Shown: positions 21,088 to 42,290 of the stretch, in pieces
Layout of the letters: every line of letters starts with the position of its first letter
Numbering within the stretch: the stretch's first letter is position 1
Assembly (NCBI GenBank): GCA_964437555.1
Contig: CAYTHI010000001.1
Span: forward strand, 35,149-99,148
Direction: 5' to 3'
Source: Candidatus Woesearchaeota archaeon
GTDB lineage: Archaea > Nanobdellota > Nanobdellia > Pacearchaeales > GW2011-AR1
Length of the DNA: 64,000 bases
Notes under the pieces: model-generated
What the model was told of the DNA's origin: nothing
Databases searched by the model: none
The model's input: the letters and a program-made list of their open reading frames with translations, nothing else
Position numbers and translations under genes: made by a program

Positions 21088-21466
21088 TTCCTGAATAAAA
21101 TCCTAAACTTGTATTTTCATGAGTAATAACGCTAAAAGGAATAGAAATAGACTCTCCTACCGCAACAGAGTAGCTTTTCTGAAAGACTAATAAATCTGCT
21201 ATATTGCCATTTGCTTCAAGATAAATAATGACTGGAACAGAATATCCGTTTGCAAAAAGCAGGTTTCTTGTTGCGCTTCCCCCTATTGCTATTTTCCCAA
21301 AAGTTAAGGCAGTTGAATTCAAATCAAATCCGCCTGTATTTTCAGTGACCTCAACACTGGCAAAAACTTTCTTAACCTCAACGGGGCGATAAGAAATAAA
21401 AAGAGAAAGTGAGATAATAAAGAGGATTAAAGAAAACCCAAAAAGAAAATAAGCTGCTTTTTTCAT
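21056..21466 (-). CDS. small secreted or membrane protein
   Basis: N-terminal hydrophobic segment. Confidence 0.4.
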   Translation of the reverse strand: MKKAAYFLFGFSLILFIISLSLFISYRPVEVKKVFASVEVTENTGGFDLNSTALTFGKIAIGGSATRNLLFANGYSVPVIIYLEANGNIADLLVFQKSYSVAVGESISIPFSVITHENTSLGFYSGIVDVGVYLEK

Positions 21467-22569: not shown

Positions 22570-22754
22570 ATAACAAATTAAAGAAACAAGTTTTTATATC
22601 TTTTCAAAAAGCATCCTTAATATGGCTGCAGCAATAAATTGACTAATAAACTGTATAGCAGATTATATAAATATGATAAAAACAAGTGCAGCAAGCATAA
22701 ATTAATATGTTAAGAACATGCATAAAGAATTCTAAAGTAACATAGAAAGTAAAG

Positions 22755-23423
22755 CTAAAGAGCTGTCACCGTAGCAGTAACGACATCGCCTAACGCTCCT
22801 GTCTGGGAGTTTTCAGGAATAGTAAGATTAAAATCTAATCTTAATAAATCATTTCCTGACTCAAATCTGAACACAGAGCATCCTAAGCCTCCATTCTGCT
22901 GGTAGGCTGTTGTATTGGCCTGAAAGAAGCGATTAAGCCTCAAGCCTTCAGTTCCTCCTGCCACTCCGCTATTGTTTAAGCAAGAATTAGCTTCAACAGC
23001 TGTTAAATTCCACTCATAAACCGGATTGCTTCCGCCTATAAATTCAGACGCATTCTTCCCAACAGATAAATTCAGGCTAACATTAACATTTCCTATATTC
23101 TCCAATCTCAATCCTCCTGCAGTTGTTAATGTCCAGTTTCCGCCTGTAACATTGTCTGTCGCAAATGTAGTCAGGGCAGCAGCGCTTGAAGCAGGATTAA
23201 CTCTTCCCGAGCCCCAGCTTATTGCTCTTGTTGTAAAATTAACATTTGCAAGCGTTTCAACAGTAAGATTTGCCTCTCCTGTTGAAGTGGCAAAAGTCGT
23301 AACTCTACTGACAAGATTAGCAACAGAATAATAAGTAACTCCTGCAGCAATCAAAGAAACAACTACTGCAATCAATGCGAAAACTATTATAACAGAATCA
23401 AAGCTGCTTGATTTATCCGCCAT
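22755..23423 (-). CDS. N-glycosylation-sequon-dense membrane-anchored protein
   Basis: At least 10 N-x-S/T sequons in ~220 aa. N-terminal TM 'VIIVFALIAVVVSLIAAG'. Start set at an internal Met. Confidence 0.45.
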   Translation of the reverse strand: MADKSSSFDSVIIVFALIAVVVSLIAAGVTYYSVANLVSRVTTFATSTGEANLTVETLANVNFTTRAISWGSGRVNPASSAAALTTFATDNVTGGNWTLTTAGGLRLENIGNVNVSLNLSVGKNASEFIGGSNPVYEWNLTAVEANSCLNNSGVAGGTEGLRLNRFFQANTTAYQQNGGLGCSVFRFESGNDLLRLDFNLTIPENSQTGALGDVVTATVTAL

Positions 23424-23616
23424 TTGAACCCTCTTCTGCTTCGCTTGTCTCAACAACAAAATCAATAGTTCCACTGCCTGCCCCGACAACATTCCCTGAA
23501 GTCTTGCCATAAGGAACATTCAGATTCAAAACCTGAAAGCTTACAAATGCTGAAATTGCAGAGAACAGAATAGCAAGAATAAGTAAAGCCAAAACAATTT
23601 TTTGTGTTTTATCCAT
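23413..23616 (-). CDS. small TM protein
   Basis: 'MDKTQKIVLALLILAILFSAISAFVSF'. Confidence 0.35.
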   Translation of the reverse strand: MDKTQKIVLALLILAILFSAISAFVSFQVLNLNVPYGKTSGNVVGAGSGTIDFVVETSEAEEGSNGG

Positions 23617-23961
23617 TCGCTCCTTGTCCATGAATAAAAAGAGCCGAATATTTAAACCTTTCTTCAATAAAACATATTGTTTGATAAAAATAGTTTAATG
23701 GTGATTAGCCAATTTTAGCACTAAAAAGGATTAAATTGAAATTGTAAGCAAACAAATTAATCAGAAAGTTATCTTTTATCTCCGATAGAAATTAATATTA
23801 TCCACTAATTAACTTGAGAAGTATTTAAAGTTCGTATTTTCTATTGCAAGACAGATTTTCTACCTTATTTATGTCAAGAAACATTAAAAAGTTGGTGCAT
23901 TAACTGACTAATCACCAGTTTAATTATTACTGATAGAATAAAACCCTGATTTTATTGCCGG

Positions 23962-25167
23962 CTATTTCCCCTTAACCTTCTTCCTTAGATAAATAAACCA
24001 TAATAAGTTAACCATTATAAGCAGTACAATTACAGCTACAAGAACAATAATCAATGGCTGTGAGAACCTGCCTGAACTTCTGCTTCCTCCAGATGAAATT
24101 ACATAGCCGACACCAACAACATTTATATCATTATCCGAAACTTCAAGCTCTAATTCTCTTTGCTCGGAATTTGCTCCATATTTCAGGAATAATGAAGACT
24201 TGTAAGTGCCTTCCCTAACGCCTTCAGTATCCCAAAACGCAATCATCAGTATTTTACTAAGAGACGGAATATCATAAGTGGCTGACTTAAAATCAGCCAT
24301 CACGGCTCCTTCAGTATTGAACACCTGCATCTGCGCATAAGCTCCGGAAATCTGTTGGCTCCACTTATTCTCAACTAAAATTTCAAATTTGGCTATATCT
24401 CCCAAAGAGAAATCATTTACCTCTACCCCGACAACATCAAGTACCTGATTGCCCAAATTAAACTGCGTTTCAAGAGTAGCAGTAGATTCATCATAAATCA
24501 AAGTCGCGACAGCCCTGTAAGGTCCTGGCGGCGCATCTGATTTCCAAACAGCAACAACATCTCTTCTTTGGCCGCTTGGAATCTCAACTTCATTCGTATT
24601 AATTGTTTCAATCTTTTCATTCAGAGAACTGTATATGTCAATTACAGCCCCAACTCTTACTAAATCAAGCTCGCCTCTGCTTATCACAGGAATAACAAAA
24701 GTAACACTTCCGTCATCGTCAGGCCCGATTACATTAAGAGAAGCCTCGGCATATTTTCCCGGATAAGGAACGAATAAATGTATTTGAGTTGCAACTCCTA
24801 AAGCAGCCCCTATAAAGGCCTGGCTTGTTTCTGCCTTCTTAGGCAGTTGTAATACAACAACTTCCGAAGTATGCAATCCGGGAGACAATCCATTAGGAAT
24901 ATCAACAATATACCTTAATTTCTTTTCTTTGTCTGCGGCTTTCATCGAAAAAGAAACTTCTGAAAGAGAAATGCTTCTGTTTAATTCTCCCTGAACAAAA
25001 ACAACAATATCCATATCCTGATTTTCTGAATTAACCACTGTAAACTCAACTTCTGTCTTTTGTCCGGGTTTGTAATCCAGAACCGTCCTGCCGGGAGTAA
25101 TTCCCAATGCTAAAGCGCCAGAAGACAATAAAACCAGAAGCAAAAGTATAGCCAATAATTTATCCAT
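23962..25167 (-). CDS. surface protein paralog (signal peptide + C-terminal TM anchor)
   Basis: Signal peptide 'MDKLLAILLLLVLLSSGALALGITPG'. C-terminal 'LIIVLVAVIVLLIMVNLLWFIYLRKKVKGK'. Confidence 0.55.
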   Translation of the reverse strand: MDKLLAILLLLVLLSSGALALGITPGRTVLDYKPGQKTEVEFTVVNSENQDMDIVVFVQGELNRSISLSEVSFSMKAADKEKKLRYIVDIPNGLSPGLHTSEVVVLQLPKKAETSQAFIGAALGVATQIHLFVPYPGKYAEASLNVIGPDDDGSVTFVIPVISRGELDLVRVGAVIDIYSSLNEKIETINTNEVEIPSGQRRDVVAVWKSDAPPGPYRAVATLIYDESTATLETQFNLGNQVLDVVGVEVNDFSLGDIAKFEILVENKWSQQISGAYAQMQVFNTEGAVMADFKSATYDIPSLSKILMIAFWDTEGVREGTYKSSLFLKYGANSEQRELELEVSDNDINVVGVGYVISSGGSRSSGRFSQPLIIVLVAVIVLLIMVNLLWFIYLRKKVKGK

Positions 25168-25657
25168 TTTCTCCCCCTATAAATTTAGTTCCTGCAACTT
25201 CCTTGCTTTCATCAACATCAAGAACAATGCTTCCTGTAAGATTTTCATTCTGATAAATATCAACATTAAGCAAGGTGTTTCCTGCATTAACAAGGTCATA
25301 CCTGCTGCCTTCACTTTTCTTCAGCTTCAATGCAACCTCTGAAATGATAGTAAGCTTTCTCACACTGCTTGGCAAAGCTCCCTGAACCTTCCAGTAATAA
25401 GTGCCTGGCTTCAGATTCACTATCAAATTATCTTCAACAAAAATCTCCTGCGGAGAACTAAACTCAAGATTATCATCTATCAGTATTTCATTCGCCTTTT
25501 CAAAACTAAATAGAACCGAATTGTTTGAAGTTGCATAGTCATCAAGAGGAGAGATAACTAATGGGCTTGCATATCCAAACACAAAAACAATCCAGATTAA
25601 TGTTCCGACTATCAAAAGAAAGTCAATTGCCAAGATGTATTTCTTCTCAAATTTCAT
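25160..25657 (-). CDS. N-terminally TM-anchored protein
   Basis: Coupled to neighbours (1-nt gap to the giant gene, 8-nt overlap downstream). Confidence 0.45.
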   Translation of the reverse strand: MKFEKKYILAIDFLLIVGTLIWIVFVFGYASPLVISPLDDYATSNNSVLFSFEKANEILIDDNLEFSSPQEIFVEDNLIVNLKPGTYYWKVQGALPSSVRKLTIISEVALKLKKSEGSRYDLVNAGNTLLNVDIYQNENLTGSIVLDVDESKEVAGTKFIGGENG

Positions 25658-25658
25658 T

Positions 25659-28600
25659 TTATTCTCCCAGACTCCCTGTAAACGTTACAGTGGAGTTTCT
25701 TGCTCCGGCAGCCTCCTGTAAAGGAACAGTTACATTAATGTCAATTTCAGCAGTATCTGTTGCATTTGTATAATTAAGCCGGGCAATTGCCAGAATAGGG
25801 GAAGCAGTAAGAGTAATATTTGTATAAGTAAACTTTGACAATACCCAGTTAAAAGAGCCATTCTCCAAAGTGTAATTATCAATCTTGAATTGATAGTTAG
25901 TGCTCGGATTTGCCTGGCTTCTCCACAAATCAGTTGCTCCTATTGTAACATTCACAAAAGAATTCCCGTCATTCTGGATTAAGAAAGGAAGAGGGGAATT
26001 GTCAGAAGTATCATTGGTTCCAAACTGCGATATCTGCCCAAAATTAATGCTGGAATTAGGCAGGCTCATCTGAATCAATGAAGAAATATTAACTCTGAAG
26101 AAATCTGTCCATGCAGAATAATCCTGCTCGTCATAAGCTCTTATAGACCAGTTATATTGGTAATTATTATCATACAAATACAATAAGTCTCCTGATAGTT
26201 TATGGCTTGTCAAGCCCAATGGAAAAGATATGTGCCTATTATCCTCTCCATATCCGCTGCATCCCCCGCCTAAAATGTTTCTGCATGTTAAATTCAATTC
26301 ATAAAATAATGAATCTCCGTCATCATCGCTGCCGGCAGTCCATACAAAGGTCGGCGTCCTGTCGGTTGTTGAGCTTCCGTCTGCCGGGCTTGACAATGTC
26401 GGAGTTCCTGGAGGTGTATTAATTATAGTAAGATTTGATGAATTTACCCAGTTGCTATACTCCAGGCCATCATATAATCTCATTGAGCAAGTCCAATTAT
26501 GATTTTTAGTAGTATTGCCTGAAAGAAGAGTGGCATTGAAAAAAGAATTATTAGCATAGCTATTATTAAAGTCAACAACAAGATGTGACAAAGAATTATT
26601 AATCCACATGACAGTTACATTAATCCTGTCTCCTTCAGGATCAATTAAAGTGTCAAAGCAATTCAGATTCTCATTTGTCCTGTTTGTTCCAAGAGTTGAA
26701 TTTATCTCCGGAGTGGGGGCTGCTGGGGCATTATTAGAATCCTGGATGCTATAATTGCTAAAGCCGCTTATATTGAATATAACTGTTCCTGCATTTAATG
26801 ATGTGAAATTATAGCAATCATTGCAGATAGCATTGTCCCGATACACTTTAGGATACCTGAAATTGCCCGGCATATTATAGAAAGTGATATTTGCAGTTTT
26901 GTTCAAATGACTGAATATTGTAGAATTTGCAAAAACAAAATTATTCCGTAATTCTGTATTTAGGCTTAGGTTTGTCAAATTAAGGGCAGAAGTTCCTGAA
27001 ATGAATTTTATTTCTCCTCCGGAAGTTGTTCCATTTATTAAAGTAATAGTGATATTATTCCCATAGCTTGAATTCAAGTCGGCAAACTGACCTGAATAAT
27101 TTATTATTAATCTTCCGTGTTTAAAAGTAGGAAAAGCGCTAAGATTAACAGCAATATTAGTAAGATTAATTAATCTTGTATCTTCTATATATGCTAAACC
27201 TCCCTCGCTCGTTGCAGAACCATCCCCTGCACCCATCGCAGCAGATATTTGCTTAGTTACATTTGTATTATAAAGATAAAAAGCTCCTCCTGGCCCTCCT
27301 GATCCTGCTGAAGCAATGCATGTCGCATCGCATATCTCTCCGTTATTCAAAAGCCCCTCTACTTCTGAATCTCTTATTGTAATATTTTTGCCTCCGTTTC
27401 CATTATTGCCTGTATATGTAACACCTATTGAATTGGTAAAGTCAGGAATAAATGTATTTTTTACTGTGAGATTTTCAGCAGGGTCCCGCAATTCAATCCC
27501 ATGAACAGTTCCTATTACGGGCCCTGTATGCTCAATAGTAAATCCCTCTCCTTCTAATGCAATATTTGAGGCATTTACAACCAGGCAGCTTGCTGTTGTA
27601 GATAATGTATTGTTAAGGAAATAGGTCTTTCCTGTTTCATGCAAAGTTGTACAGGCAGAAACAAGAGACACATTAAGACCGAAAGTAACATTAACAGTAA
27701 AATTATTATTGCCCAAAGTGTCATTGGCATAAACTCTGAATACATAAGTTCCTGTTAAAAGAGAATTATTTGAATGCGTAAAAGCAGTTCCAAACTTTCC
27801 TTCATTGCCATTCATTGAAATATTATCTACTCCGTTGTTCATAGAGTATGAAACGCTTCCGTTTTCATCCAAGCTGACATTGAAAGTGAAAGGCAAATCG
27901 CTGAAGGTATAGTTCGCACCCTTAGGGAAGTATACTGTAATATTGGGGGGAGCTGCATCCGCCGGGCTGTAAGTAAGAGTGAAGTTTGAAGTATTGAATG
28001 CCTGATTATGAGGAATTGCATTATCCATAGCAAGAAAATTCCAATAATATGCTCCACTGCCATTAAGCCCGATATTATGCGTAATGTTTCCTACTATGCT
28101 GCTGTTGCCTAATCCTGTAAAGTTCTGTGCTACTAAGTCATTAGTTGAATTGTAAACAAATAATGTTGCATTGCTTACATTAACATCATCGGTAAATAAA
28201 GCTCCGAATGCAGCAATGCCTGTTGTTGTTATAGTATTATTGCTCGGATTTATTAGCATTACTTGAGGAGAAGTCTTATCTGCTGCAGAAGTATCAATTG
28301 TTATATTTGCGAAATAAACATCTGTTGCCTGGTCAGTATAAACAAGCTCCAATTCACTGCTTCCAAGTTGATTGTTAGACGGATAATTGGAACATCTGAC
28401 AGAAGGGAATCTTAATGCTCCTGTATTATCAGAGATCTGCTCTTGAGCAGTGAAAAACCCTGTTGAGGTATATTTTATGTAATCAATAGCTGTATTATTT
28501 TCAAAGACAATATGAGCGTTGTTGTTCGCATCAAGGCATCCCTCGCTATCATTGAAAGTTCCTGCATACGTCGCATTGGAATAAACTATTCCATCACTGC

Positions 28601-31600
28601 TGTTAATCACAACTAAATCCTCGCTTGCCGCATCTATCGCTGTAATCAAAATTGTTGTTCCTCTTATGCTTAAATGCATATTTGAAACAGCTAATCCATA
28701 AGCTATTGTGGTCTGATTTGCTGTAAACGAACCAGAAGAATTAATTACAAGCAAGCTACTTGTGGCAGCATCATCTAAGGCAATATAAACATTTCCATTG
28801 CTGCTCATATCTAAAGAACAGCTTTCAGCAATTCCAGGTCCGCCTGCCGATGCTCGTGTAGTCCATGCCAGAGTAGCACCAAGATTAGTAAACGAAAAAT
28901 CCATGTCAAAATCATCATTATCCATGCTGCAGGCAAGAAACCTGCCGCTTGTTGTAGTGCCGTCAAAAGCAACATCCGGGCGATAATTGTCGTTAGTTCC
29001 TCCGGAAACATCAATGATAGCTCCTGAATTAGCAACATTGCAGTCAGCAGTCACATTGTAAATATAACTTATATCATTCTGACCTCCCGTATCATCAGTA
29101 AACATATAGATAATAGCAGAGCCATTAGTGGCAATAGCCATATCGCTATGAGTTCCAGTTAAAGAATCATAAGTATTCCAATTAACACCTTCATCTGAAG
29201 AATCTGAACAGGAGGCATCACTGCTTGCATCCTGCCACAATGCAATAAGTAAATCGGAATTTAACCTGACTATGTTTTTTCCTGCATTAAATCCGCCAGT
29301 AGTAGTTCCTGTTGCTGTTGTTGATGCGTCCGCATTAATCAGATAGTTAGTTGAAGGGTCAATAATATGGTCAAACTCCACACTGCCTCCTAAAATCCTT
29401 AAGTCAAAACTATCCTGCTCTCCTTCCAATCCTGTAAGAAATACTTTATTATATTCATTATCATTAATGCTTTCAAATTCTGCAATAGTCTTATTTTCAT
29501 TTATTTCATAGACTTCAATCCTCGGACTTCCGTTCACAGCTCTTGGATAAATGCTTATGTCCCTGTCGCTTGTCAAATTCCTCTCAAATTTAACTCTCAC
29601 ATAATGCTCTGCAGGAATAGTTTCACTCCAATTTCCGTCCAGTTTAGAAACTTCAGGATAAATGTCAGAGATAAATGTCCTGTTTGAATCAAGATGCTCT
29701 GCAGAAACAATTTCTATAATTAAATCAAACGTCTGATTGCTCAACTCCGGAATAATCCATTCAGCGTAATCATATATTCCATCTTCATCTAAATCAGAAA
29801 CATTTACAGGAACAACATACGCTTGTTTTTCTTCCCAGTATATTTTTAAATCATCTTTATCAATAAGATTATATGATTCATCTAAATTCGTGAAGGACAA
29901 AACATTCTCATAATGAATTTCATCAGGCCCTATAATCAAAACTTTCTTGCCTATTCGTCCATCAGTTAAATTTTCCTCTATCGCATAAGGAGCAGGAGTA
30001 TAATAACTCACTTTGGCTCCTTTCTCAAACTCGCTTAGCTCAATTAATATTTCTTTTCCTTCTTTTGCTTCTGCTTCTTCAGAAACTGCAAATCCGGTCA
30101 ATCTTAAAATATTTCTAAACCATTTTAAAATTCTGTTTTCCCTGTTCAAACTAAGGTCTGCTGTAACCGCTCCAGTGATTATGCTTCCTGTAATATCAGC
30201 ATTAATGGATTCTGGCTCATTATTAGCGGGCTCTGACACCTCAACATTCTCTTCAACATCGGCAACTTCATCTGTTCCTTCATTATCAAATTCCTTCTCT
30301 ATCTTGTCAATAGAAATATTTTCAGCGATTTCAGGGATAAAAATGCTGAAACTGGCAGGTCCATCAACATTATCAACTTTCTTAACCCATTTAACAGGCT
30401 CGTTAAGCTTTATTTCATCATGAACAAGCTCAACATTTATGGATAAATTAGGCTCAATTGTTTTATTAGGAGAAATTATGCTTTCATTAGAAGTTTTATT
30501 AATGCCAATTTCAGGAACAATTTCCTCATTTTTTTCATCAGATTTATTCAGATTTCCTGAAACTGATATGCCTTGAAATACTTCAACAATTGTTTGTCCT
30601 TCATAAGAAAGCTTAGCAGATAAAACGCCTTCATCAGCCCTAAAATTAAAATCTTCCAAATCAATAATTAAAGTAAGCTTATTATTTCCTAAATATTCTT
30701 TGCCGAATCCTTTTTCCTCTAAATAATAATCAGTTGAAACAATGACTTCATTTCTATTTATATCAACTTTGACATTTTCATCTCCAATTGCCTCTCCATT
30801 CGCAGTTACGCTTCCTGAAATTAATCTTGCACTCTGTCCTTCACTTAGCTCATGCACAAAATCTTGCCCATTAACCGCAGTTCCTGTAATTCCAGATGAA
30901 AATTCAGATATCGCTGCTCCTGTAATTCCCGGAGCAGGGCTTCCACCACCAGATTCACTTCCTCCTCCTGAACTTTCAGAATTACTATCAGAAGTTTCCT
31001 GCTTATTTTCTTCTGAATTTTCTTTAGATTCTGCAGGGGTTTCTTTCTTATCAGCATTCAAATCATCCTGCATCTGGGGCTCATCAATTTTAGAAGAGCC
31101 GCTTCCTGAAGAGCCAGAACCAAATTCTTTTACTATCTCCAATTCAAAACTCACAGAAGGATAAATTTCTCTTATGCCACTTATACCATACCCTTCGCCG
31201 CTTCCTGATAAATCCAAACCTTCCGCATAAAAATCTCCATTAACAGCCTGTTCTGTGATTAAATCTTTCAAAGCAATTTCTCTTTCAATACTATTAAGAC
31301 CAATAAGTACAACAGAATCAACAGGAATAAGTTCCCCCGCTTTCAAATTTAAAATCAAATTGCCTTCTATCTGCTCTCCAAGAACATATCGTGTCTTAAT
31401 ATCAAGCGTTGCATTCCCTGTTAAATTCGCTGAGATGAAAAAGAAAAGTAAGAGAACTCCTAAAACAAAAAAGAAAGCTGCAGGAAAAAGATATTTCTTT
31501 AAATTATTTCTGGATTTTGCATGCCCTAAGTATCTTGTAATTATCTTTCCATCAACTCTTTCTGTTTCATAAAGATATGGGCCAAATCTCTTCCCATTTT

Positions 31601-31625
31601 TATAAGTATATTTTTTATGTACCAC
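25659..31625 (-). CDS. giant (1988-aa) cell-surface protein with N-terminal signal anchor, Gly/Ser linkers, tandem beta-sandwich and beta-helix-like domains, and dense N-glycosylation sequons
   Basis: Basic cytoplasmic N-terminus then TM 'LFPAAFFFVLGVLLLFFFI'. 'GSGSSGSGSS...SGGGSESGGGS' linkers. '...TPTFVWTAGSDDDGDSLFYEL' Ig-like motif. A run of NxT/NxS sequons (e.g. 'NLTNLSLNTELRNNFVFANSTIFSHLNKTANITFYN'). Confidence 0.6.
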   Translation of the reverse strand: MVHKKYTYKNGKRFGPYLYETERVDGKIITRYLGHAKSRNNLKKYLFPAAFFFVLGVLLLFFFISANLTGNATLDIKTRYVLGEQIEGNLILNLKAGELIPVDSVVLIGLNSIEREIALKDLITEQAVNGDFYAEGLDLSGSGEGYGISGIREIYPSVSFELEIVKEFGSGSSGSGSSKIDEPQMQDDLNADKKETPAESKENSEENKQETSDSNSESSGGGSESGGGSPAPGITGAAISEFSSGITGTAVNGQDFVHELSEGQSARLISGSVTANGEAIGDENVKVDINRNEVIVSTDYYLEEKGFGKEYLGNNKLTLIIDLEDFNFRADEGVLSAKLSYEGQTIVEVFQGISVSGNLNKSDEKNEEIVPEIGINKTSNESIISPNKTIEPNLSINVELVHDEIKLNEPVKWVKKVDNVDGPASFSIFIPEIAENISIDKIEKEFDNEGTDEVADVEENVEVSEPANNEPESINADITGSIITGAVTADLSLNRENRILKWFRNILRLTGFAVSEEAEAKEGKEILIELSEFEKGAKVSYYTPAPYAIEENLTDGRIGKKVLIIGPDEIHYENVLSFTNLDESYNLIDKDDLKIYWEEKQAYVVPVNVSDLDEDGIYDYAEWIIPELSNQTFDLIIEIVSAEHLDSNRTFISDIYPEVSKLDGNWSETIPAEHYVRVKFERNLTSDRDISIYPRAVNGSPRIEVYEINENKTIAEFESINDNEYNKVFLTGLEGEQDSFDLRILGGSVEFDHIIDPSTNYLINADASTTATGTTTGGFNAGKNIVRLNSDLLIALWQDASSDASCSDSSDEGVNWNTYDSLTGTHSDMAIATNGSAIIYMFTDDTGGQNDISYIYNVTADCNVANSGAIIDVSGGTNDNYRPDVAFDGTTTSGRFLACSMDNDDFDMDFSFTNLGATLAWTTRASAGGPGIAESCSLDMSSNGNVYIALDDAATSSLLVINSSGSFTANQTTIAYGLAVSNMHLSIRGTTILITAIDAASEDLVVINSSDGIVYSNATYAGTFNDSEGCLDANNNAHIVFENNTAIDYIKYTSTGFFTAQEQISDNTGALRFPSVRCSNYPSNNQLGSSELELVYTDQATDVYFANITIDTSAADKTSPQVMLINPSNNTITTTGIAAFGALFTDDVNVSNATLFVYNSTNDLVAQNFTGLGNSSIVGNITHNIGLNGSGAYYWNFLAMDNAIPHNQAFNTSNFTLTYSPADAAPPNITVYFPKGANYTFSDLPFTFNVSLDENGSVSYSMNNGVDNISMNGNEGKFGTAFTHSNNSLLTGTYVFRVYANDTLGNNNFTVNVTFGLNVSLVSACTTLHETGKTYFLNNTLSTTASCLVVNASNIALEGEGFTIEHTGPVIGTVHGIELRDPAENLTVKNTFIPDFTNSIGVTYTGNNGNGGKNITIRDSEVEGLLNNGEICDATCIASAGSGGPGGAFYLYNTNVTKQISAAMGAGDGSATSEGGLAYIEDTRLINLTNIAVNLSAFPTFKHGRLIINYSGQFADLNSSYGNNITITLINGTTSGGEIKFISGTSALNLTNLSLNTELRNNFVFANSTIFSHLNKTANITFYNMPGNFRYPKVYRDNAICNDCYNFTSLNAGTVIFNISGFSNYSIQDSNNAPAAPTPEINSTLGTNRTNENLNCFDTLIDPEGDRINVTVMWINNSLSHLVVDFNNSYANNSFFNATLLSGNTTKNHNWTCSMRLYDGLEYSNWVNSSNLTIINTPPGTPTLSSPADGSSTTDRTPTFVWTAGSDDDGDSLFYELNLTCRNILGGGCSGYGEDNRHISFPLGLTSHKLSGDLLYLYDNNYQYNWSIRAYDEQDYSAWTDFFRVNISSLIQMSLPNSSINFGQISQFGTNDTSDNSPLPFLIQNDGNSFVNVTIGATDLWRSQANPSTNYQFKIDNYTLENGSFNWVLSKFTYTNITLTASPILAIARLNYTNATDTAEIDINVTVPLQEAAGARNSTVTFTGSLGE

Positions 31626-31734: not shown

Positions 31735-33678
31735 TTATAATCCAACTTGAAATATCCAATTTGCGTCTTCACTGAATCCGCAGGGGTCTATTATTCCTGC
31801 GCTTTCATTATGGATTGTCGTTGCATTGCACGCTCCAAAATAAGACAAGGAGGAAAAGCAGTCTGGGTCTGAATCATCTGTAAACCCATCATAATCATTA
31901 TCCAACCCATCCCTGCATTGAAACAAGCTGGGAGTGGGAATATGTTGGGTTATATCAATATATTTATTATTCCCGAGTGATTTGAAATAAAAAATATTAT
32001 CTTCTTTTCTAACTGTGCTGAAGTTTTTAGATATAAAATTAATTTCTGTAAAATTCCCTATTGGAATCTGTAAAAGCCTCCCGCCCCGCCCTATAAGCCC
32101 GACTTGTCTGAAATTTGGCTGCAAACTTAGGGGAGGAAACCAGTGGCTTAATGTGATTGAATCAAATCCCGCATGCTGTGCAATTGCAATCCCTGATTTT
32201 ATTGAATATCCATAATAATCCTGGCTGAAATTATAAAATGCAGGCGAATATTCTGTTGAGCTTAATCCTTTTCCTGTTATTCCATTATCTCTCCATATTG
32301 CCCTTACAAGATTTGCTATATATTTTCCCTGCTGCGGAAATCCATGATACGTGTGAATATCAAGGTAATCATAATATGCCGAGCCATTAACAGCAACAGC
32401 TTTTAGAAATTCGTAAGTTACTCTTCCTTCCCGGTCTCCTAGAGTTACAATCTTGATTCCGGGGCGGCCATCGCTTGACCTATAATAAAATCCATCAATA
32501 ATATAACTGTCCTCATTAAATCCCGCATAAAGCGCGGCATTATCAACACCTGTTACTCCGAAAGTTAAAACAGGAAGCGATGGAGCAACTTCTTTTACAG
32601 CAAGATAAGAAATATTCATCAAACTTAATATCTGTACCTCTTTATCTGTTCCAAGCGGGCCATAATCGTAGCTGGCATTAACTTCAAATTGATGGCCCCA
32701 CTCATTGCCTATTTGCACCCCAACAAAATAATCTCTGTATACCGGATTGTTGTAATACCTGTCCGTTATGTTTTTTATATAATCTGTCCATTGCTGCTCG
32801 CTTTTCGGATAAGAGTCCGGCTCCTGAAGCCCTATCCCTCCCAAAGTAAATGAGACTGTTGAAAGGTCAGGATGATTTGACCTTACCGTGAGAAGAAATT
32901 TCATATTTGCATTCTTAAAGTTATTGGCTGCCGCATCTAATCCGGTGAAATTGTAGGTTAATGCTGTGCCATTTTGAACATTATACCAGTCTAATATAGA
33001 GCGATGATATTGCACTCCTGTTTGGTTTGTCTGGCTTAACGTAGCTGAAGATGAGCCTACCGAATGAAGTCCCAATACGGGCAGCGGAGTTATGCTTGGA
33101 TTTAGCAAGCCATTTCTTATTCTCGTGCATGTATCTAAATCAAAGTCAGATAGATTAATGATTTTATAGCTGCCGCATGCTCCAACCGGAGGGATATTGC
33201 CGCTGGAAGCCTGTTGCGTGCAAATTGCTTCAAGCCCTGAAAAATCACACAATCCCGAAGATAAAACTCCTGCAACATCAACTGACTCAACTGAAGCACC
33301 CCCTAAATCTAAATCCAAATTAAAATCATAAACTTCAAAGCCAAACTCGCCGGGAAAATTATTTGTTTCTGACAGGATTATGTTTCCGTTAGAAGTCTTA
33401 AATAAAAATTTAATTTCTCTTAGCTGCCCCTGACCTGCTCCTCTGCGAACACCGACTTCAATTCTGTTTCCATCAATAATCAAGTCACAATTCTCAGCTT
33501 TCAAATCCAAATCAAAACAGCTTAGCAGTCTGCCCTGCTCTCCGCTTCCTCCTTCTCCTGTTCCTAAAATCTTAGTTACCGGAGGCTGAACAAAAATCCA
33601 AACAATTGCAATAGCAACAAGTGCAATCAATATCACAAGAACAGTTGTAACAATGCTACTAATTCCTCTTTTTCGCAT
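31735..33678 (-). CDS. secreted protein with archaeal prepilin-like (class III-type) N-terminus and a conserved Cys-containing N-module; C-terminal region carries a glycoside-hydrolase-like 'GNEW' motif (tentative)
   Basis: 'MRKRG|ISSIVTTVLVILIALVAIAIVWIFVQP'. The N-module is homologous to that of 39146..41413. 'VGVQIGNEWGHQF' resembles a GH-A acid/base motif. Confidence 0.5.
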   Translation of the reverse strand: MRKRGISSIVTTVLVILIALVAIAIVWIFVQPPVTKILGTGEGGSGEQGRLLSCFDLDLKAENCDLIIDGNRIEVGVRRGAGQGQLREIKFLFKTSNGNIILSETNNFPGEFGFEVYDFNLDLDLGGASVESVDVAGVLSSGLCDFSGLEAICTQQASSGNIPPVGACGSYKIINLSDFDLDTCTRIRNGLLNPSITPLPVLGLHSVGSSSATLSQTNQTGVQYHRSILDWYNVQNGTALTYNFTGLDAAANNFKNANMKFLLTVRSNHPDLSTVSFTLGGIGLQEPDSYPKSEQQWTDYIKNITDRYYNNPVYRDYFVGVQIGNEWGHQFEVNASYDYGPLGTDKEVQILSLMNISYLAVKEVAPSLPVLTFGVTGVDNAALYAGFNEDSYIIDGFYYRSSDGRPGIKIVTLGDREGRVTYEFLKAVAVNGSAYYDYLDIHTYHGFPQQGKYIANLVRAIWRDNGITGKGLSSTEYSPAFYNFSQDYYGYSIKSGIAIAQHAGFDSITLSHWFPPLSLQPNFRQVGLIGRGGRLLQIPIGNFTEINFISKNFSTVRKEDNIFYFKSLGNNKYIDITQHIPTPSLFQCRDGLDNDYDGFTDDSDPDCFSSLSYFGACNATTIHNESAGIIDPCGFSEDANWIFQVGL

Positions 33679-33872: not shown

Positions 33873-35444
33873 TTACTGCGGTCTGTTCCTCGCCGGATTA
33901 GGAACATTGCATTCCTGATTATAATCCGACTGTGCAGAAACCGGAGAATTTAAGTTATTCGGCTGTGTTATAACTTTTGCAGTATTCTCTATATGAACAG
34001 AAGTCTGCCCCCATTCTATCTTCCTTGCGGCAACATCGTTTATAAAACCGATTAATGTATAAGAGCTCTGTCCGTTGTTCGGGCTAATCATCTCCGTAGT
34101 TTCTGCCGGACCTTTAAATCCATGAACTCTCTTTAAATCTCCTGTTCCTTTTTTGATAAAAAGCCAATCTGTCCAAACAAAAGTATCCTGCTCTTTGTTC
34201 CCATATTGGGCATATCTGTGTATTGTCTGGCAGAGAGCAAGTAATTTAGCTGGAAATTCAGGGGCATTCTGGTCTCCTAAACCCGAAACAGCAATTAAAT
34301 CTTCCTTATTAATTACTGGCAGGATTCTTAAATCCAGGTTTCCGAATCTTGAATGATAGTGTTCTGTTAAATCTAAAACATCAAGGCATTCATCTCCTCC
34401 GGAATAAGTAGCTCCGTTCTGTTCGCAGGGCTGTAAGACATTATAATTATCAAGTCGATTCTGCAAATCTGCCTTTTTTTGAGCATTTGTTACTATATCA
34501 TTCCCGTCCCATACTCTCGCTGTTGGAGAACCAGCCTGAGGAATTATAGTGAATTTTGCATTTGGCTTATTATAAATTAAATCTCCTATTCTCCACGCAT
34601 TATACCATACTCCGAATCCTCCTGCTGAACTGCCTGTCATTAGTATCTCTGCATTATTTAAGTTAAAGCCCGTTGGCTGTAATCTTTCAAAGACTTTATC
34701 TAATCCTAATTCAACATTTTTTGCTCCGTCATGCAATATATTAAAATAGACTTTCTCAACTTCAAACCTGCCATTAATGTTAGTGCCTTGAATTTCTAAT
34801 CCTTTTATTTGCGATTGTATTTCCTGTATTGTATTCCCCCTATTGTTGAGCAACGTCTCAATCTCCTGCACTATTTTCGTAACTTCTGAAAAATCATATC
34901 TCTTGGCTGATGTTTCTCTCCCTGAATGGAAATCCTGCGTGCAATAAGGTATAGTAACCCAGTTGGCATCTTTGACGAATAATTCATTGTCTGGATGGTC
35001 AATAAAAATAAATTGCTCAATTTCTAATGGCCCGCCTCTTTTTGGAGATGTTAATGCCCGCATTTCTTTCAGACTCCCTATGGCTGTATTCAGAGTTCCG
35101 TCTATATTTTTAGAAGTTGAGCCCCCGCCAGGAAACCAGATTACCAGACGATTGTTTGGCTTATTATTTAAAGAAGGTCCTTGCGAGAATAAGATTTGAT
35201 ATGGCTCTCCATTGCCGCATTTTGCGCCGTCAACTATTATTGTTTCCCATTCGCTTCTGTCTGTGAAGATAGGGAAGTTCGGGATTTCTTCCTCCTCTTC
35301 TTCTCCTCCCCCGGAGCCTCCTCCGCCTCCTTTTCCCCCTTTCTTAAAAATACCAAGCCGCGGAGCCAGCACAGCAAGTAAAAGCACGACTATTATAAGA
35401 GCAGCAATGATAATAATTATGGTTTTTTGCTGGCTTTTTTCCAT
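33873..35444 (-). CDS. membrane-anchored alpha/beta-hydrolase-fold esterase (GxSAGG nucleophile elbow)
   Basis: N-terminal TM then 'KKGGKGGGGGSGGGEEEEEE' linker. 'ILMTGSSAGGFGVW' and 'VIWFPGGGS' are esterase/pectin-acetylesterase-like motifs. Confidence 0.5.
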   Translation of the reverse strand: MEKSQQKTIIIIIAALIIVVLLLAVLAPRLGIFKKGGKGGGGGSGGGEEEEEEIPNFPIFTDRSEWETIIVDGAKCGNGEPYQILFSQGPSLNNKPNNRLVIWFPGGGSTSKNIDGTLNTAIGSLKEMRALTSPKRGGPLEIEQFIFIDHPDNELFVKDANWVTIPYCTQDFHSGRETSAKRYDFSEVTKIVQEIETLLNNRGNTIQEIQSQIKGLEIQGTNINGRFEVEKVYFNILHDGAKNVELGLDKVFERLQPTGFNLNNAEILMTGSSAGGFGVWYNAWRIGDLIYNKPNAKFTIIPQAGSPTARVWDGNDIVTNAQKKADLQNRLDNYNVLQPCEQNGATYSGGDECLDVLDLTEHYHSRFGNLDLRILPVINKEDLIAVSGLGDQNAPEFPAKLLALCQTIHRYAQYGNKEQDTFVWTDWLFIKKGTGDLKRVHGFKGPAETTEMISPNNGQSSYTLIGFINDVAARKIEWGQTSVHIENTAKVITQPNNLNSPVSAQSDYNQECNVPNPARNRPQ

Positions 35445-37926: not shown

Positions 37927-38178
37927 ATGGAATCAAAGGGCGTAAAAATAAGCGATGAGAATTACCGCTGGCTCGCAACTCTGGCTGCTGAATTGCAAAA
38001 GCAGAAGCAGCGTCCGATATCATTAGACGAAGCTCTTACGGAGATAAAAATGAAAAAATCAGATAAAAAAAACATATTGTCCTTTGCAGGAATGTGGAAA
38101 ATAAGCGACAAGGAAGCTGACAAATTAAAAAGCAAAGTCAGAGCAGGATGGGTTAAATGGAAAACAAAGCCTGCTTAG
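37927..38178 (+). CDS. putative antitoxin (VapB-like) of second VapBC pair
   Basis: 83-aa protein overlapping the downstream PIN gene by 22 nt. Confidence 0.45.
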   Translation: MESKGVKISDENYRWLATLAAELQKQKQRPISLDEALTEIKMKKSDKKNILSFAGMWKISDKEADKLKSKVRAGWVKWKTKPA

Positions 38179-38552
38179 ACACAGATTTCTTAATTGACTT
38201 TTTAAGAAATAAAAAAGAAAAAGTAGAATGGATAAAGAATAATTCAGAAGCAAGCTTAGCAACAACTATAATTAACGTGTTTGAATTGTATTATGGAGAA
38301 TATAAATTAGAATCAAGAAAAAATTTAGAAAAACTGGAAGATTTCCTGAATAGTTTTTATATTCTGAATTTAAATAATGAAATAGTAAAAAAAGCAGGGG
38401 AAGTTGCCGCCCAGCTTGAAAAGCAGGGTAATATGCTGGAATTTAGGGATATATTAATTGCAGTAACAGCATCACATAATAATTATTCATTAAAGACAAA
38501 TAACAAAAAGCATTTTGAAAGAATAAAAGATTTGAAGATACTGGATGACTAA
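38157..38552 (+). CDS. vapC: PIN-domain toxin VapC (second copy)
   Basis: 'LDTDFLIDFL', 'VFELYYG' and 'FRDILIAVTA' carry the PIN catalytic residues. Confidence 0.7.
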   Translation: MENKACLDTDFLIDFLRNKKEKVEWIKNNSEASLATTIINVFELYYGEYKLESRKNLEKLEDFLNSFYILNLNNEIVKKAGEVAAQLEKQGNMLEFRDILIAVTASHNNYSLKTNNKKHFERIKDLKILDD

Positions 38553-39145: not shown

Positions 39146-41413
39146 CTAATTATCCGGCTTAATTTCCAATAAAGATGCTTCGCACAAAGGCTCATTAATC
39201 AAGAAGGTAGAAGTGGCAACACTCGCATCCTTATATTGCCCGCCTTTAACAGCTCTAACATAGCACCCTATATAATTATTAGCCCCTTCGGGCCAGCCAA
39301 CATCACTGATAGAATTAACATTCGCGCTATACCTGCCATTTCCTAAATCATCCATAGTTATGTTTTCCATGTAAGAATATCTTAAATCAGGAGCCACAGG
39401 ATTGAAATCAGTATCTTCGTTATTCAGGCTTGGGCAGGTAGGAGGGATATTCCTATTTCTTAAAGTTGGAGGCCATGCGTTTCTATTATTATTGAAAGGA
39501 GGATAATCATCTAAGTCTCCCTGTGTACACCATAGCTCAACTCTTACGTCACTGAAATCATTAGTTCCTGTAATTGTTGCGTTTACAATCTCATTTTCAA
39601 GATAATATTTAGCATCAACTTTTAAATAATCAGAATTTCCTGCCAATGTCTTATTAACAAGTGTCCTGAATAGGATAGCATGGTCAACAGTTCCGAATCC
39701 GTGCCCGTAATTAGGAACAGCAAGCAGTCTTAGATTAGAAGGCATGCTGTTTATAAATAAAGATTCAGCTCCTTCTGCATAAAAAGTATCTATGCTTCCA
39801 AAACTTCTTGCAACAATCTTTCCGTTCCAAAGATTAATGTCCCATTTTACAGGGTCGTAATAATCAAGCCATTTTTCTTTCCCCTGGGAAAAAACTAACT
39901 CATCCCGTTCACGTTTATAAACATCAGAAGGATAAGTATTTCCAAACAAAGAAATTCTTTGTGCTAGTAAATCCAAATAATTCCCTGCATTTGCATGCCC
40001 TATCAGTCCTGCCTTAACTCTCGGCTCTGCAACAATAAATTCCTCCATTGCACTGCCTCTCTTTGAGCCACCCATTGCAATCACATTATTGAAATTGAAA
40101 GAATAAATGTTGTCTTGGCTGTCTCTCCAATTCCCTTGGATAGCTGTCTGATTAAGCACAGCTTGAGAAACATCAATCAATCTGCTTGCAGCAACAGAAT
40201 AAAACAAAGTAGGATGCTGGTCAATATAAGGCCAACCATCATTATAATCCACAAAAGATAGCGTGTTCAAACACCCATGAACAATTGGTTCACTAGTTAA
40301 CTGGCCTGAACATTCATTATCGTCGCATAAAAAAGTCGGCGACCTCTCCTGTGCAAGTGCATTTAGTTTGCTCTGAATTGCGGGGGTGAACTGAATCCAT
40401 CTTCCGCTTCCTGCAGGAACAACACCATAAAATACCATTGGGACATTAAATTCTGCTACAACGGAGCCAAATGATTTCTGGAAATTGCCTTGTGTATCTG
40501 TTCCGGCATACCAAGAAGGAATTTCATTCGCGTTTCTCACTGGGTCTGTTCCCAGAGGACTGCCTCCCGAAGTGCCTGGCTGCATGCTTAATGCCAGTGT
40601 GTTTTTATTAATCTGCCTGATTGAAGGGTCAGGAACAAGTAAAACAGCCTCTGCTTCCCAATTAGAAGTAAATGGTGCATTATTATAAGACGGCTCAAAC
40701 GGCCTGAATCTAAAAGTAATAACTTTAACATTAACTCCATTGATATTTAAATCGCTAATCTGCGGAACACTCCTCACTCCAAGATTATTTCCGACAGGAT
40801 AAAGGGAATTCAATCTGGAATAAGCACCTAAAATACTTCTGTTATTTCCAGGAAGCAGCTCATCAGGAGCGCAGTAGCTTAATCCCTGCGTTCCTCCACC
40901 GCCTCCGCCTCCCCCATCGCCTCCGGCAGAGCACGCAGAAGCAAGCCCGCTAAATCCACATACAACTCCATCTCCGATTATGCTGGCGACATCAATGCTC
41001 TTTATCTCATCATCAGTAATGCCAGACAAATCAAATTTATATCTGACAGAGCCAAACTCTCTCGGAAAATCAGTGTTATTAGATAAAATAAATTCATCGT
41101 TCGCCGTCTTGAACTTAAAAACGATTTCCTTAAATTCAGTTTCTCCAGCCCCTCTTTCAACTAATATCTCATACATTCCATTATCAAGAGCATTGCAATC
41201 AGAGCTTTTCAGCTTCAGGTCAACGCACCCTATAAAATTTCTAACCTCTCCGCCTTCGTCCTTATCGCCGAAGGTTTTTGTTATTGACGGCTGGATAAAA
41301 ACCCAGAGGATTCCTATAAGGATAAGCACAATTAACATAATCAACACAATAGTAATTACTTCTGAAAGCCCTCTTTTATGCACAAGGATCTTTTCATTCC
41401 TCTTTTTATTCAT
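39146..41413 (-). CDS. large secreted protein with prepilin-like N-terminus, a conserved Cys N-module and an alpha/beta-hydrolase-like region
   Basis: 'HKRG|LSEVITIVLIMLIVLILIGILWVFIQP'. The N-terminal ~150 aa are homologous to 31735..33678 ('C.DL.LK..C...RGAG...FKT.N..ILS.N.FP.EFG'). Poly-Gly linker. 'NVIAMGGSKRGSAM'. Confidence 0.5.
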   Translation of the reverse strand: MNKKRNEKILVHKRGLSEVITIVLIMLIVLILIGILWVFIQPSITKTFGDKDEGGEVRNFIGCVDLKLKSSDCNALDNGMYEILVERGAGETEFKEIVFKFKTANDEFILSNNTDFPREFGSVRYKFDLSGITDDEIKSIDVASIIGDGVVCGFSGLASACSAGGDGGGGGGGGTQGLSYCAPDELLPGNNRSILGAYSRLNSLYPVGNNLGVRSVPQISDLNINGVNVKVITFRFRPFEPSYNNAPFTSNWEAEAVLLVPDPSIRQINKNTLALSMQPGTSGGSPLGTDPVRNANEIPSWYAGTDTQGNFQKSFGSVVAEFNVPMVFYGVVPAGSGRWIQFTPAIQSKLNALAQERSPTFLCDDNECSGQLTSEPIVHGCLNTLSFVDYNDGWPYIDQHPTLFYSVAASRLIDVSQAVLNQTAIQGNWRDSQDNIYSFNFNNVIAMGGSKRGSAMEEFIVAEPRVKAGLIGHANAGNYLDLLAQRISLFGNTYPSDVYKRERDELVFSQGKEKWLDYYDPVKWDINLWNGKIVARSFGSIDTFYAEGAESLFINSMPSNLRLLAVPNYGHGFGTVDHAILFRTLVNKTLAGNSDYLKVDAKYYLENEIVNATITGTNDFSDVRVELWCTQGDLDDYPPFNNNRNAWPPTLRNRNIPPTCPSLNNEDTDFNPVAPDLRYSYMENITMDDLGNGRYSANVNSISDVGWPEGANNYIGCYVRAVKGGQYKDASVATSTFLINEPLCEASLLEIKPDN

Positions 41414-41444: not shown

Positions 41445-42290
41445 TTATTGCACAGCAGCATCCGCGCTTACTGCTGGAACTTCTTCAACTTCAGAAGAAA
41501 AAGCACTCCACCACGGCTTATCAATATCAATAACTCCGTCATCAGCATCAATCTCTGCTCTCACTTCAGCTCTCTTCTCAAACAATCCAAATACTCTGAA
41601 TCTCTTTTCAGCCCTAATTTCATATCTCAATCTGCCGCTGTCATCAATTTCATCATCCTCAACTTCATCTGCAGAATCATCCTCTGCTTCATCATTAGCA
41701 TCGTCATCATCTCTGTCTCTTCCAACATCTTTTAGCACAATTGTGCAGTTATTTTCAGGAGAACAAGCATGCAATCTTAATGCTTCAAGAGCGCGGGCAG
41801 CCGCAACATCGGGCATAATTTTGATACTGGCATTCGTGCCATCCCTCAGCTTTACCCTTAATCTTGTTCGGTTCCTGTTAGAACTATCATCCCCAACCTC
41901 GTCTTCAACTTCTATCTCATCTTCCAATTCAACCTCAACTTCTTCATCTCTTACTTTAATCTTTATTATCTGCTCAATTCTTCCATCCTCTCTTTCCCTA
42001 TACTCAAATCTTATTTCTCTTTCAATTCCATCCTCACCAACAACTCTTATTCTTTCTCTTATCCTGAAAACATCTCTGCCGCTTCCGCTGCTATCATCAG
42101 AGTCATCATCTTCTCCAGAATCACTATCATCGTCTCCGTCATCGCCCCCATTTCCAGAGCCGCTACCGCTATTTCCATTTCTTCTGCCAGAACCTTCATC
42201 AGCGATAGTATAAGGAACACTTCCTATTACATAGAGTACAATAAACAAAAGAAGAAAAGCATTAATTATCTGCCTCTTTTTCATGCACAT
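41445..42290 (-). CDS. secreted, highly acidic (Asp/Glu-rich) protein with internal Arg/Glu repeats
   Basis: Signal peptide 'MKKRQIINAFLLLFIVLYVIGSV'. Asp/Glu/Ser tracts. Repeated 'R.RE.IR...E..IERE' units. Confidence 0.45.
   Translation of the reverse strand: MCMKKRQIINAFLLLFIVLYVIGSVPYTIADEGSGRRNGNSGSGSGNGGDDGDDDSDSGEDDDSDDSSGSGRDVFRIRERIRVVGEDGIEREIRFEYREREDGRIEQIIKIKVRDEEVEVELEDEIEVEDEVGDDSSNRNRTRLRVKLRDGTNASIKIMPDVAAARALEALRLHACSPENNCTIVLKDVGRDRDDDDANDEAEDDSADEVEDDEIDDSGRLRYEIRAEKRFRVFGLFEKRAEVRAEIDADDGVIDIDKPWWSAFSSEVEEVPAVSADAAVQ

Follow-up and report, generated by a model that had tools for sequence, protein, structure and literature searches.

In bacteria, modular pilins have been described in which a small pilin module presents a grafted von Willebrand factor A (vWA) domain or a concanavalin A (ConA)-like lectin, and more than 1200 such proteins with 264 architectures have been recorded (PMC8179133). 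The proteins PilB and PilC of S. sanguinis, which carry a vWA domain and a ConA-like lectin, respectively, are examples (Raynaud et al. 2021, PMC8179133; PMC9934059). A 2026 census mentions a precedent among archaea, a class III protein of the M. maripaludis Epd cluster that has a binding domain (10.64898/2026.04.22.720090). The enzymes in a review's table of experimentally characterised archaeal secreted proteins carry Sec or Tat signals processed by signal peptidase (SPase) I or II, and the only non-filament substrate of SPase III among the table entries considered is a glucose-binding protein (PMC3387779). Two open reading frames (ORFs), A and B, were analysed here in a 64-kb stretch of DNA from a Candidatus Woesearchaeota archaeon (the window, which means the whole stretch). 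A and B are probably modular archaeal type IV pilin-like proteins with enzyme cargo. The kind of protein is known, as modular type IV pilins and as class III surface proteins; new here are the archaeal setting, the DPANN lineage and the catalytic cargo. A literature search retrieved no description of archaeal pilin-hydrolase fusions, of enzyme cargo or of this DPANN pilin family, a result that is not proof of absence.

The bacterial modular pilin is the closest known system, nearer than the bindosome of Sulfolobus. The parts named in the definition of a modular pilin (Raynaud et al. 2021) are present in A and B, namely a pilin module, a linker and a cargo, which is clan GH-A-like in A and matches PF10142 in B. 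Like the bacterial proteins, A and B combine a class III signal, a complete small pilin module, a short linker and a module that is not specific to pili. Many architectures per carrier are found in both groups, with a ConA-like lectin/glucanase as a frequent cargo. Unlike the bacterial module, the DPANN module is of the archaeal type (TIGR02537, Lys or Arg at position -2, beta-sandwich) and its sequence is unrelated to the bacterial IPR012902. A and B carry hydrolase-like cargo in place of an adhesin, the organism is a DPANN archaeon, and A and B are known here from sequence alone.

The shared pilin module of A and B

ORF A (31735..33678, minus strand) encodes a protein of 647 amino acids that consists of a pilin module, a linker, a GH-A-like catalytic module and an acidic Cys-rich tail. 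ORF B (39146..41413, minus strand) encodes a protein of 755 amino acids with a pilin module, a Gly linker and a PhoPQ-related alpha/beta-hydrolase-like module. The positions, strand and N-termini of both ORFs agree with those quoted in the initial annotation, and all features of A and B described below are on the minus strand. In a BLASTP comparison of the two proteins, 64 of 155 aligned residues are identical (41%, E 5e-28). This similarity, which is far beyond chance, is restricted to the N-terminal ~155 residues, and none was detected between the remainders of the two proteins. A prepilin-like N-terminus was found only in A and B by a six-frame motif scan of the window, and a hidden Markov model (HMM) of the pilin-module family likewise matched A and B only among the window ORFs.

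The ~153 N-terminal residues of A and B and of six fused homologues were combined into a pilin profile, with which 1.84 billion cluster representatives were searched in HMMER. At E<=1e-3 the profile matched 3720 representatives, 398 of which reach E<=1e-10. Long proteins of 470-1040 amino acids make up the best ~20 matches; the rest are mostly stand-alone proteins of 135-170 amino acids that align from profile position 1-2 to ~151. Because of this end-to-end match to stand-alone proteins, the signal, the helix and the Cys module are read as one complete pilin-sized protein. The initial annotation had described a shared module of ~150 residues with conserved cysteines that follows the signal helix. 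The module is indeed shared (41% identity over 155 residues) and its cysteines are conserved, but it is not an additional domain; it is a complete pilin that includes the helix. The possibility of a novel, separate Cys-rich domain is ruled out by the same end-to-end alignment. The comparison with other DPANN archaea proposed earlier finds the module in thousands of stand-alone homologues of ~150 residues. There is accordingly little doubt that in A and B unrelated cargo is joined to a whole module of the pilin family.

The structure of residues 1-160 of A was predicted with AlphaFold2 (AF2) from a 95-sequence alignment, with a predicted local distance difference test score (pLDDT) of 87.4. In the model, a first helix (residues 6-30) leads into a Gly-rich turn of low order; a second, short helix covers residues 46-56, and seven strands lie between residues 59 and 156. 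As modelled, A has the helix-plus-beta-sandwich architecture that characterises archaeal type IV pilins. The globular part of the pilin in A (residues 46-155; 33214..33543) corresponds to the short helix and the seven-strand sandwich, and the mature pilin module of B (residues 16-163; 40925..41368), as judged by sequence comparison, to a hydrophobic helix and a beta-sandwich with the cysteines C63, C73, C152 and C161. The four cysteines of A (C54, C64, C144 and C153) are invariant in 8 fused homologues. In the 97 family members, all four are present in 81 (CCCC) and only the first and third in 8 (C.C.). This paired co-variation therefore implies the disulfides C54-C144 and C64-C153. The sole significant PDB sequence match of the deep family profile is 8FK7 chain A (E 4.6e-5, profile positions 4-92), the filament-forming subunit of the Pyrobaculum calidifontis type IV pilus; the match is modest and driven mainly by the N-terminus. 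A Foldseek search of the PDB with the confident model of the module returned only antibodies and other immunoglobulin (Ig)-like sandwiches (E ~4e-3) and was uninformative.

According to a review, cleavage by archaeal SPase III is decided by positions -2, -1 and +1, and a positive charge at -2 is an archaeal hallmark (Szabo & Pohlschroder, PMC3387779). The rule asks for a positively charged -2 residue, Gly or Ala at -1 and a hydrophobic +1 residue. Both proteins fit it, with predicted cleavage between R-G and I in A and between R-G and L in B. The NCBIfam model TIGR02537 (archaellin/type IV pilin N-terminal domain; cutoff 20) matches A with 26.2 bits, B with 21.5 bits and 58 of the 97 family members. 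The Pfam model Pilin_N gives a sub-threshold 17.1 bits for B (cutoff 25.2) and no match for A. Around the site, the 97-sequence alignment contains Lys in 85 sequences, Lys or Arg at -2 in 96, Gly at -1 in 95, Leu, Ile or Val at +1 in 95 and Ser in 92, and the end of the helix is marked by W27 (92 sequences) and P32 (85 sequences).

The leader of A, MRKRG (residues 1-5; 33664..33678), would be cleaved after G5, as judged from TIGR02537, the family logo and the rules in PMC3387779. It is followed by the hydrophobic alpha-1 helix (residues 6-31; 33586..33663), which ends at the conserved W27 and P32 and is modelled by AF2 as a helix at residues 6-30 with a pLDDT of 90-97. In B, the leader MNKKRNEKILVHKRG (residues 1-15; 41369..41413) has a predicted cleavage site after G15, for which the TIGR02537 score, the DNA and the starts of homologues were considered. 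An in-frame GTG in B would yield M-HKRG, which resembles the 4-5-residue leaders of homologues (MNKRG/MEKKG). The earlier assignment of class III N-termini is borne out by the TIGR02537 scores of both proteins and by the -2/-1/+1 motif in ~95 of 97 relatives, and processing of A and B as class III signals is likely.

The cargo modules

The pilin module of A is joined to its cargo by a linker (residues ~156-170, QQASSGNIPPVGACG; 33169..33213), in place of which homologues have Gly-rich or DUF4215 Cys-rich spacers. The catalytic module (residues ~171-580; 31939..33168) is predicted to be a divergent clan GH-A-like (beta/alpha)8 glycosidase. Enzymes of this glycoside hydrolase (GH) clan contain an acid/base Asn-Glu at the end of strand beta-4 and a nucleophile Glu at the end of beta-7, together with Arg, Asn or His, and His. 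The residues R226, N268, N325-E326, H442 and E476 are invariant in 8 A-family sequences that are 34-43% identical to A across the catalytic domain. By the clan GH-A pattern, N325-E326 of the motif 'GNEWGHQF' (32701..32706) is the predicted acid/base, and the invariant E476 of 'SSTEY' (32251..32253) is the predicted nucleophile.

When the A-family profile was compared with the PDB, the best match was the GH5 mannanase 4awe (E 0.0028), and the GH39 beta-xylosidases 6yyh and 1px8 were matched at E 0.04-0.08. The 'GNEW' of the family is aligned on the 'NEP' motif of the GH39 structures, and the weak GH5 and GH39 matches are mutually consistent. A homologue, P0013, scores 25.5 bits with Pfam GH39 (cutoff 26) and E 8e-4 with GH5 over the region that contains its NE motif. 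In the low-confidence full-length model, the catalytic region shows alternating strands and helices and no confident barrel. Since the invariant residues, the weak but consistent GH5/GH39 matches and the predicted beta/alpha alternation agree, A is probably a divergent clan GH-A glycosidase that lies outside every curated GH family. It resembles GH5 and GH39 in the invariant order R...N...NE...H...E. Unlike these families, it has no Pfam GH match, its best PDB profile match is the E 0.0028 given above and only about a dozen homologues are found, all of the source-named ones from Pacearchaeota. That A is an active GH-A-type glycosidase appears reasonably probable.

An acidic double-disulfide repeat (residues 584-608, CRDGLDNDYDGFTDDSDPDC; 31855..31929) is present near the C-terminus of A and is matched by NF033662 (E 4.3e-8). 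This repeat could be a Ca2+-binding motif. Its pattern, CxDGLDNDxDGxxDxxDxDC, resembles a Cys-rich stretch of the teneurin-4 chain (7plp). MopE-type metal-binding motifs are present in relatives.

In B, a Gly-rich linker read from the sequence (AGGDGGGGGGGGTQ; 40883..40924) follows the pilin module. Residues 438-580 (39674..40102) match PF10142, the PhoPQ-activated pathogenicity-related family (PhoPQ_related, PqaA-like), with 21.6 bits against a gathering cutoff of 20.3. This core contains GGS450KRG, with a nucleophile-type SKRG motif, and NYGH571GF; the catalytic roles of S450 and H571 are predicted. The match covers only 143 of 367 profile positions, and the flanks of ~260 residues on the N-side and ~175 residues on the C-side are without known relatives. 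Three of the four B-family members match PF10142 (best E 2.4e-7), and another homologue record, P0005, is 100% identical to B. Both motifs are invariant in the 4 B-family sequences; invariance says less here than in the A family because the B family is less diverged (51-77% identity to B over the whole protein). A PDB profile search with the B family returned nothing even at E<=10, and hence no solved homologue. The chance that B is an active alpha/beta-hydrolase is about even. The differing hydrolase-like C-termini claimed earlier were recovered, with 'IGNEWGHQF' present in a clan GH-A-like A and a PF10142 match in B.

The cargo of relatives was surveyed in 40 long representatives and in 38 ORFs from the GTDB loci described below. 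Laminin_G_3, a ConA-like lectin/glucanase domain, was detected in 10 of the former and 12 of the latter. Other cargo among the 40 representatives includes GLUG, DUF4215, a GH56 hyaluronidase (E 2e-50), GH39/GH5, phosphodiesterase/sulfatase, NHL/SBBP/SGL propellers, PKD and dockerin domains. The GTDB-locus ORFs contain NosD/beta-helix domains (in 3) and MopE, dockerin, fn3, BACON and sialidase N-terminal domains. The linkers between module and cargo vary among homologues and may be short, Gly-rich or composed of at least one DUF4215 Cys-rich repeat. When the beta-sandwiches were clustered, A-type modules (A, P0002, P0158) and B-type modules (B, P0006, P0007) fell in one cluster, which also holds other fused proteins and a single protein of 189 amino acids; most stand-alone pilins cluster apart. 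The joint clustering of A- and B-type modules therefore points to carrier pilin sub-families onto which different cargo was swapped.

Family distribution, pilus operons and the A/B locus

To survey loci of the family, a single genome of each GTDB species was scanned with sequence patterns. The scan identified 58 loci, whose labels are almost all Pacearchaeota, Woesearchaeota, Nanoarchaeota or Nanoarchaeia; a few have generic titles ('archaeon', 'uncultured archaeon') and one (L053) is labelled 'bacterium'. A contig scan for relatives that used the module of A itself found none. A local HMM search of the ORFs in the 58 loci identified ~90 module-bearing proteins, more than half of which exceed 220 amino acids (longest, 3028 amino acids), and their genes are often arrayed in tandem (L021, L033, L034, L037). 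On these sequence data, the pilin-module family appears to be large and specific to DPANN archaea (Pacearchaeota, Woesearchaeota and 'Nanoarchaeota'). The tandem arrays, found in Woesearchaeota and Pacearchaeota, contain 2-4 modular pilin genes, and one further gene encodes a protein of 3028 amino acids that starts with the module (L033 8395..13189; L034 10001..12671; L037 8258..12049; L021 10001..13121; L042 2992..12078).

Two of the loci contain pilus operons. The operon of Pacearchaeota SO_2017_GW1_51 (L054, 8204..15161) consists of five small pilin-like genes, a T2SSE ATPase gene directly behind them (PF00437, 104 bits) and two adjacent T2SSF genes; the family HMM recognises its pilin at 9983-10516 with E 6.6e-15. 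The operon of a Pacearchaeota-like metagenome-assembled genome (L047, 9402..20016) contains a pilin array with the orthologous ATPase directly downstream and one T2SSF homologue ~5 kb further; its family member matches the HMM over the full module (E 3.5e-19). The combination of one ATPase and two platform genes is the archaeal type IV filament (TFF) 'system 1', which has been reported in methanogens and DPANN archaea (10.64898/2026.04.22.720090). The operon in related Pacearchaeota, in which several small pilins accompany one ATPase and two platform genes, resembles the Epd-type 'system 1' pili of M. maripaludis. Unlike Epd-type pilins, A and B are encoded outside a pilus operon, have their own four-Cys signature and belong to a family found only in Pacearchaeota, Woesearchaeota and 'Nanoarchaeota'. 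The T2SSE/T2SSF association holds for the distant family members in L054 and L047 but not for A and B, whose locus is syntenic among relatives and is not a pilus locus.

The window has a G+C content of ~36% and, by eye, contains archaeal housekeeping-looking ORFs, including gyrase subunits, small ribosomal proteins and aminoacyl-tRNA synthetases. Judged by its homologues, the source of the window is probably Pacearchaeota-like. The synteny of the A/B locus is kept in two related Pacearchaeota contigs (L001 and L004), with up to three module-bearing genes. The gene order in these contigs is GTPase, DUF4349, acidic protein, B-like, HD, second A-like, PF1765-like, (NUDIX), PhageMetallopep, A-like, giant surface protein, and proteins of 166 and 400 amino acids. 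All three module-bearing genes are present in L001, and the last A-like gene is absent from L004. A pectinacetylesterase-like (PAE-like) secreted enzyme (33873..35444, minus strand; PF03283, 32.9 bits) is encoded between A and B, and A is followed by a gene for a giant surface protein of 1988 amino acids (25659..31625, minus strand) with the N-terminal motif MVHKKYTYKNGKRFGPYLYE and then a transmembrane (TM) segment. Because of the kept synteny, the PAE-like esterase and the giant protein, the locus looks like a conserved cell-surface and hydrolase island and not like a pilus operon.

A has more N-glycosylation sequons than expected (13 against 5.8) and B does not (6 against 7.8); the excess in A lends weak support to an extracellular location. 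The PAE-like enzyme has zero N-glycosylation sequons, and its N-terminus is an ordinary signal anchor and not of the prepilin type. The giant protein has 88 N-x-S/T sequons, compared with ~36 in shuffled sequences. Its orthologue is complete in L001 (2906 amino acids), directly downstream of the A-like gene; in L004 it occupies the same syntenic position, exceeds 1,800 amino acids, runs off the contig end and has a Laminin_G_3 match.

Several other genes of the window were noted. Seven consecutive secreted or TM proteins of 165-440 amino acids are encoded at 18756..25657 (minus strand), with no Pfam family except weak Ig-like matches in one. A pair of 165 and 401 amino acids from this run is kept after the giant gene in L001, and the run may be a conserved surface-structure cluster. 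A secreted, extremely acidic (D/E/S-rich) protein of 281 amino acids (41445..42290, minus strand) is encoded directly upstream of B and occurs in the same position in L001 and L004, where it adjoins the DUF4349 gene. Two small overlapping ORFs of 83 and 131 amino acids (37927..38552, plus strand), toxin-antitoxin-like by appearance, sit where relatives have the second A-like modular pilin gene. A membrane protein of 162 amino acids (44207..44695, minus strand) matches the Pycsar effector TM domain (PF18967, 42.8 bits); no cyclase was seen adjoining it.

Presentation of the cargo at the cell surface

The display of A and B on pili or on the cell surface, as proposed in the initial annotation, is retained as the best reading. 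In the proposed mechanism, the precursor would be inserted into the membrane by Sec and cut after the leader Gly by a PibD/EppA-type prepilin peptidase, and the helix would keep the mature protein in the membrane. A type IV pilus machine, with one ATPase and two platform proteins as in related Pacearchaeota, would then place A or B in a filament, at its tip or at low abundance, or in a short pseudopilus. The enzyme would be held off the cell, facing host envelope glycans or environmental polysaccharides. The cargo of A would act as a retaining glycosidase with E326 as acid/base and E476 as nucleophile, and that of B as an esterase-type alpha/beta-hydrolase with S450 and H571. The data suggest that the cells mount enzymes on pili or on the surface, probably against the host envelope or polysaccharides. 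The odds that A and B join an extended pilus, and are not simply surface-anchored, are judged slightly below even.

Several observations weigh against the proposed display on type IV pili. Within the 64-kb window, no prepilin peptidase, pilus ATPase or platform gene was found, and a motif-plus-TM scan detected no A24 peptidase in the flanks of the 58 related loci. Ten multi-TM candidates from the search for this peptidase were identified by Pfam as UbiA-like, SSF, YdjM, MFS and PMT_2 proteins and were rejected. Close stand-alone members of the family are mostly not encoded beside pilus genes, and the members in pilus operons are the distant ones. Cargo of 50-65 kDa is hard to accommodate along the body of a filament. 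The cargo assignments are affected as well: Pfam has no match in full-length A, and hence no GH family model; AF2, with an alignment of 5 sequences, gave a poor model for the whole of A (pLDDT 44.9); and the PF10142 score of B is marginal. According to a 2020 preprint, DPANN genomes lack type IV pilus components (10.1101/2020.05.14.094862). This statement is contradicted by the operons in L054 and L047 and by the 2026 TFF census (10.64898/2026.04.22.720090).

A mode of anchoring like that of the Sulfolobus bindosome would also place the enzymes at the cell surface. In this case the class III signal would be cleaved and no extended pilus formed, and the proteins would remain in the membrane or in a short pseudopilus-like oligomer. 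Such anchoring would fit the large cargo (about 490 and 590 amino acids), the window without pilus genes, a weak N-terminal similarity to the BasA, BasC and UpsA models and the use of class III signals by archaea on non-filament surface proteins (PMC4858521; PMC3387779). It is considered unlikely, since a whole globular pilin domain with its disulfides is kept, which is hard to explain without pilin-pilin packing, and the cargo is not a solute-binding protein. A and B resemble bindosome substrates in being non-pilin functional proteins with a prepilin-type signal that are displayed at the cell surface. Those substrates are ATP-binding cassette (ABC)-transporter solute-binding proteins with the signal and helix only, whereas A and B retain the full globular pilin domain and carry hydrolase-like cargo. 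The BasA model scores 14.8 bits on A/B, far below its cutoff of 230; no solute-binding-protein family matches A or B, and no Bas-like genes were seen in the window. Membership in the bindosome is rejected on these results. The analogy with the Sulfolobus system drawn in the initial annotation is not the closest one, given that bindosome substrates have no globular pilin domain, that their cargo is a solute-binding protein and that A and B do not match the Bas models.

The second alternative accepts modular type IV pilins and questions the enzyme activity. The cargo would consist of binding (adhesin) modules derived from hydrolase folds, and A and B would be adhesive modular pilins like PilB and PilC of S. 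sanguinis. Most relatives carry lectin- or adhesin-like cargo (Laminin_G_3, PKD, propellers, dockerin), and neither A nor B has a strong curated enzyme-family match. The invariance of catalytic-type residues, that is, NE and E in an A family of 34-43% identity and GGSKRG and GHG in a B family of 51-77%, argues against inactive cargo, which is regarded as improbable. The remaining alternative, in which A and B are uncleaved type II signal-anchor proteins with a Sec anchor helix, a beta-sandwich stalk and a convergent resemblance to pilins, would agree with the plain signal anchor of the neighbouring PAE-like enzyme, the failure to find a peptidase in the window and the flanks of the 58 loci and the sub-cutoff or missing Pilin_N matches, but it is very improbable given TIGR02537 scores above the curated cutoff for both proteins, a near-invariant K-[KR]-G-[LI]-S motif (cleavage after G) across 97 relatives, the match of the family profile to the true type IV pilin 8FK7 and the family members in pilus operons.

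Modular type IV pilins with enzyme cargo remain the preferred reading of A and B. A wider proposal, which is speculative and at present judged doubtful, is that Pacearchaeota and Woesearchaeota have evolved a dedicated 'carrier pilin' sub-family through which their type IV pili are equipped with exchangeable enzymes and lectins. The enzymatic pilus would bind and locally digest the host envelope or nearby polymers and would be one of the main routes of attachment to the host and of feeding for these metabolically minimal episymbionts. The cargo of carrier pilins may include glycosidases, esterases, hyaluronidase-like GH56 proteins, phosphodiesterases, beta-helix proteins and ConA-like lectins.

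Pacearchaeota and other DPANN archaea are metabolically minimal and apparently live tightly attached to a host (10.1101/2020.05.14.094862). The large DPANN-specific pilin family, the pilus operons in relatives and the many hydrolase and lectin fusions bear on attachment and nutrient acquisition in these archaea. With either form of presentation, as a pilus subunit or as a membrane-anchored pseudopilus stub, a glycosidase and an esterase-type hydrolase would sit outside the cell. If A and B are displayed on pili, the bacterial modular-pilin concept would extend to archaea and to catalytic cargo, concrete candidate host-interaction factors would be gained, and two uncharacterised hydrolase families would merit study.

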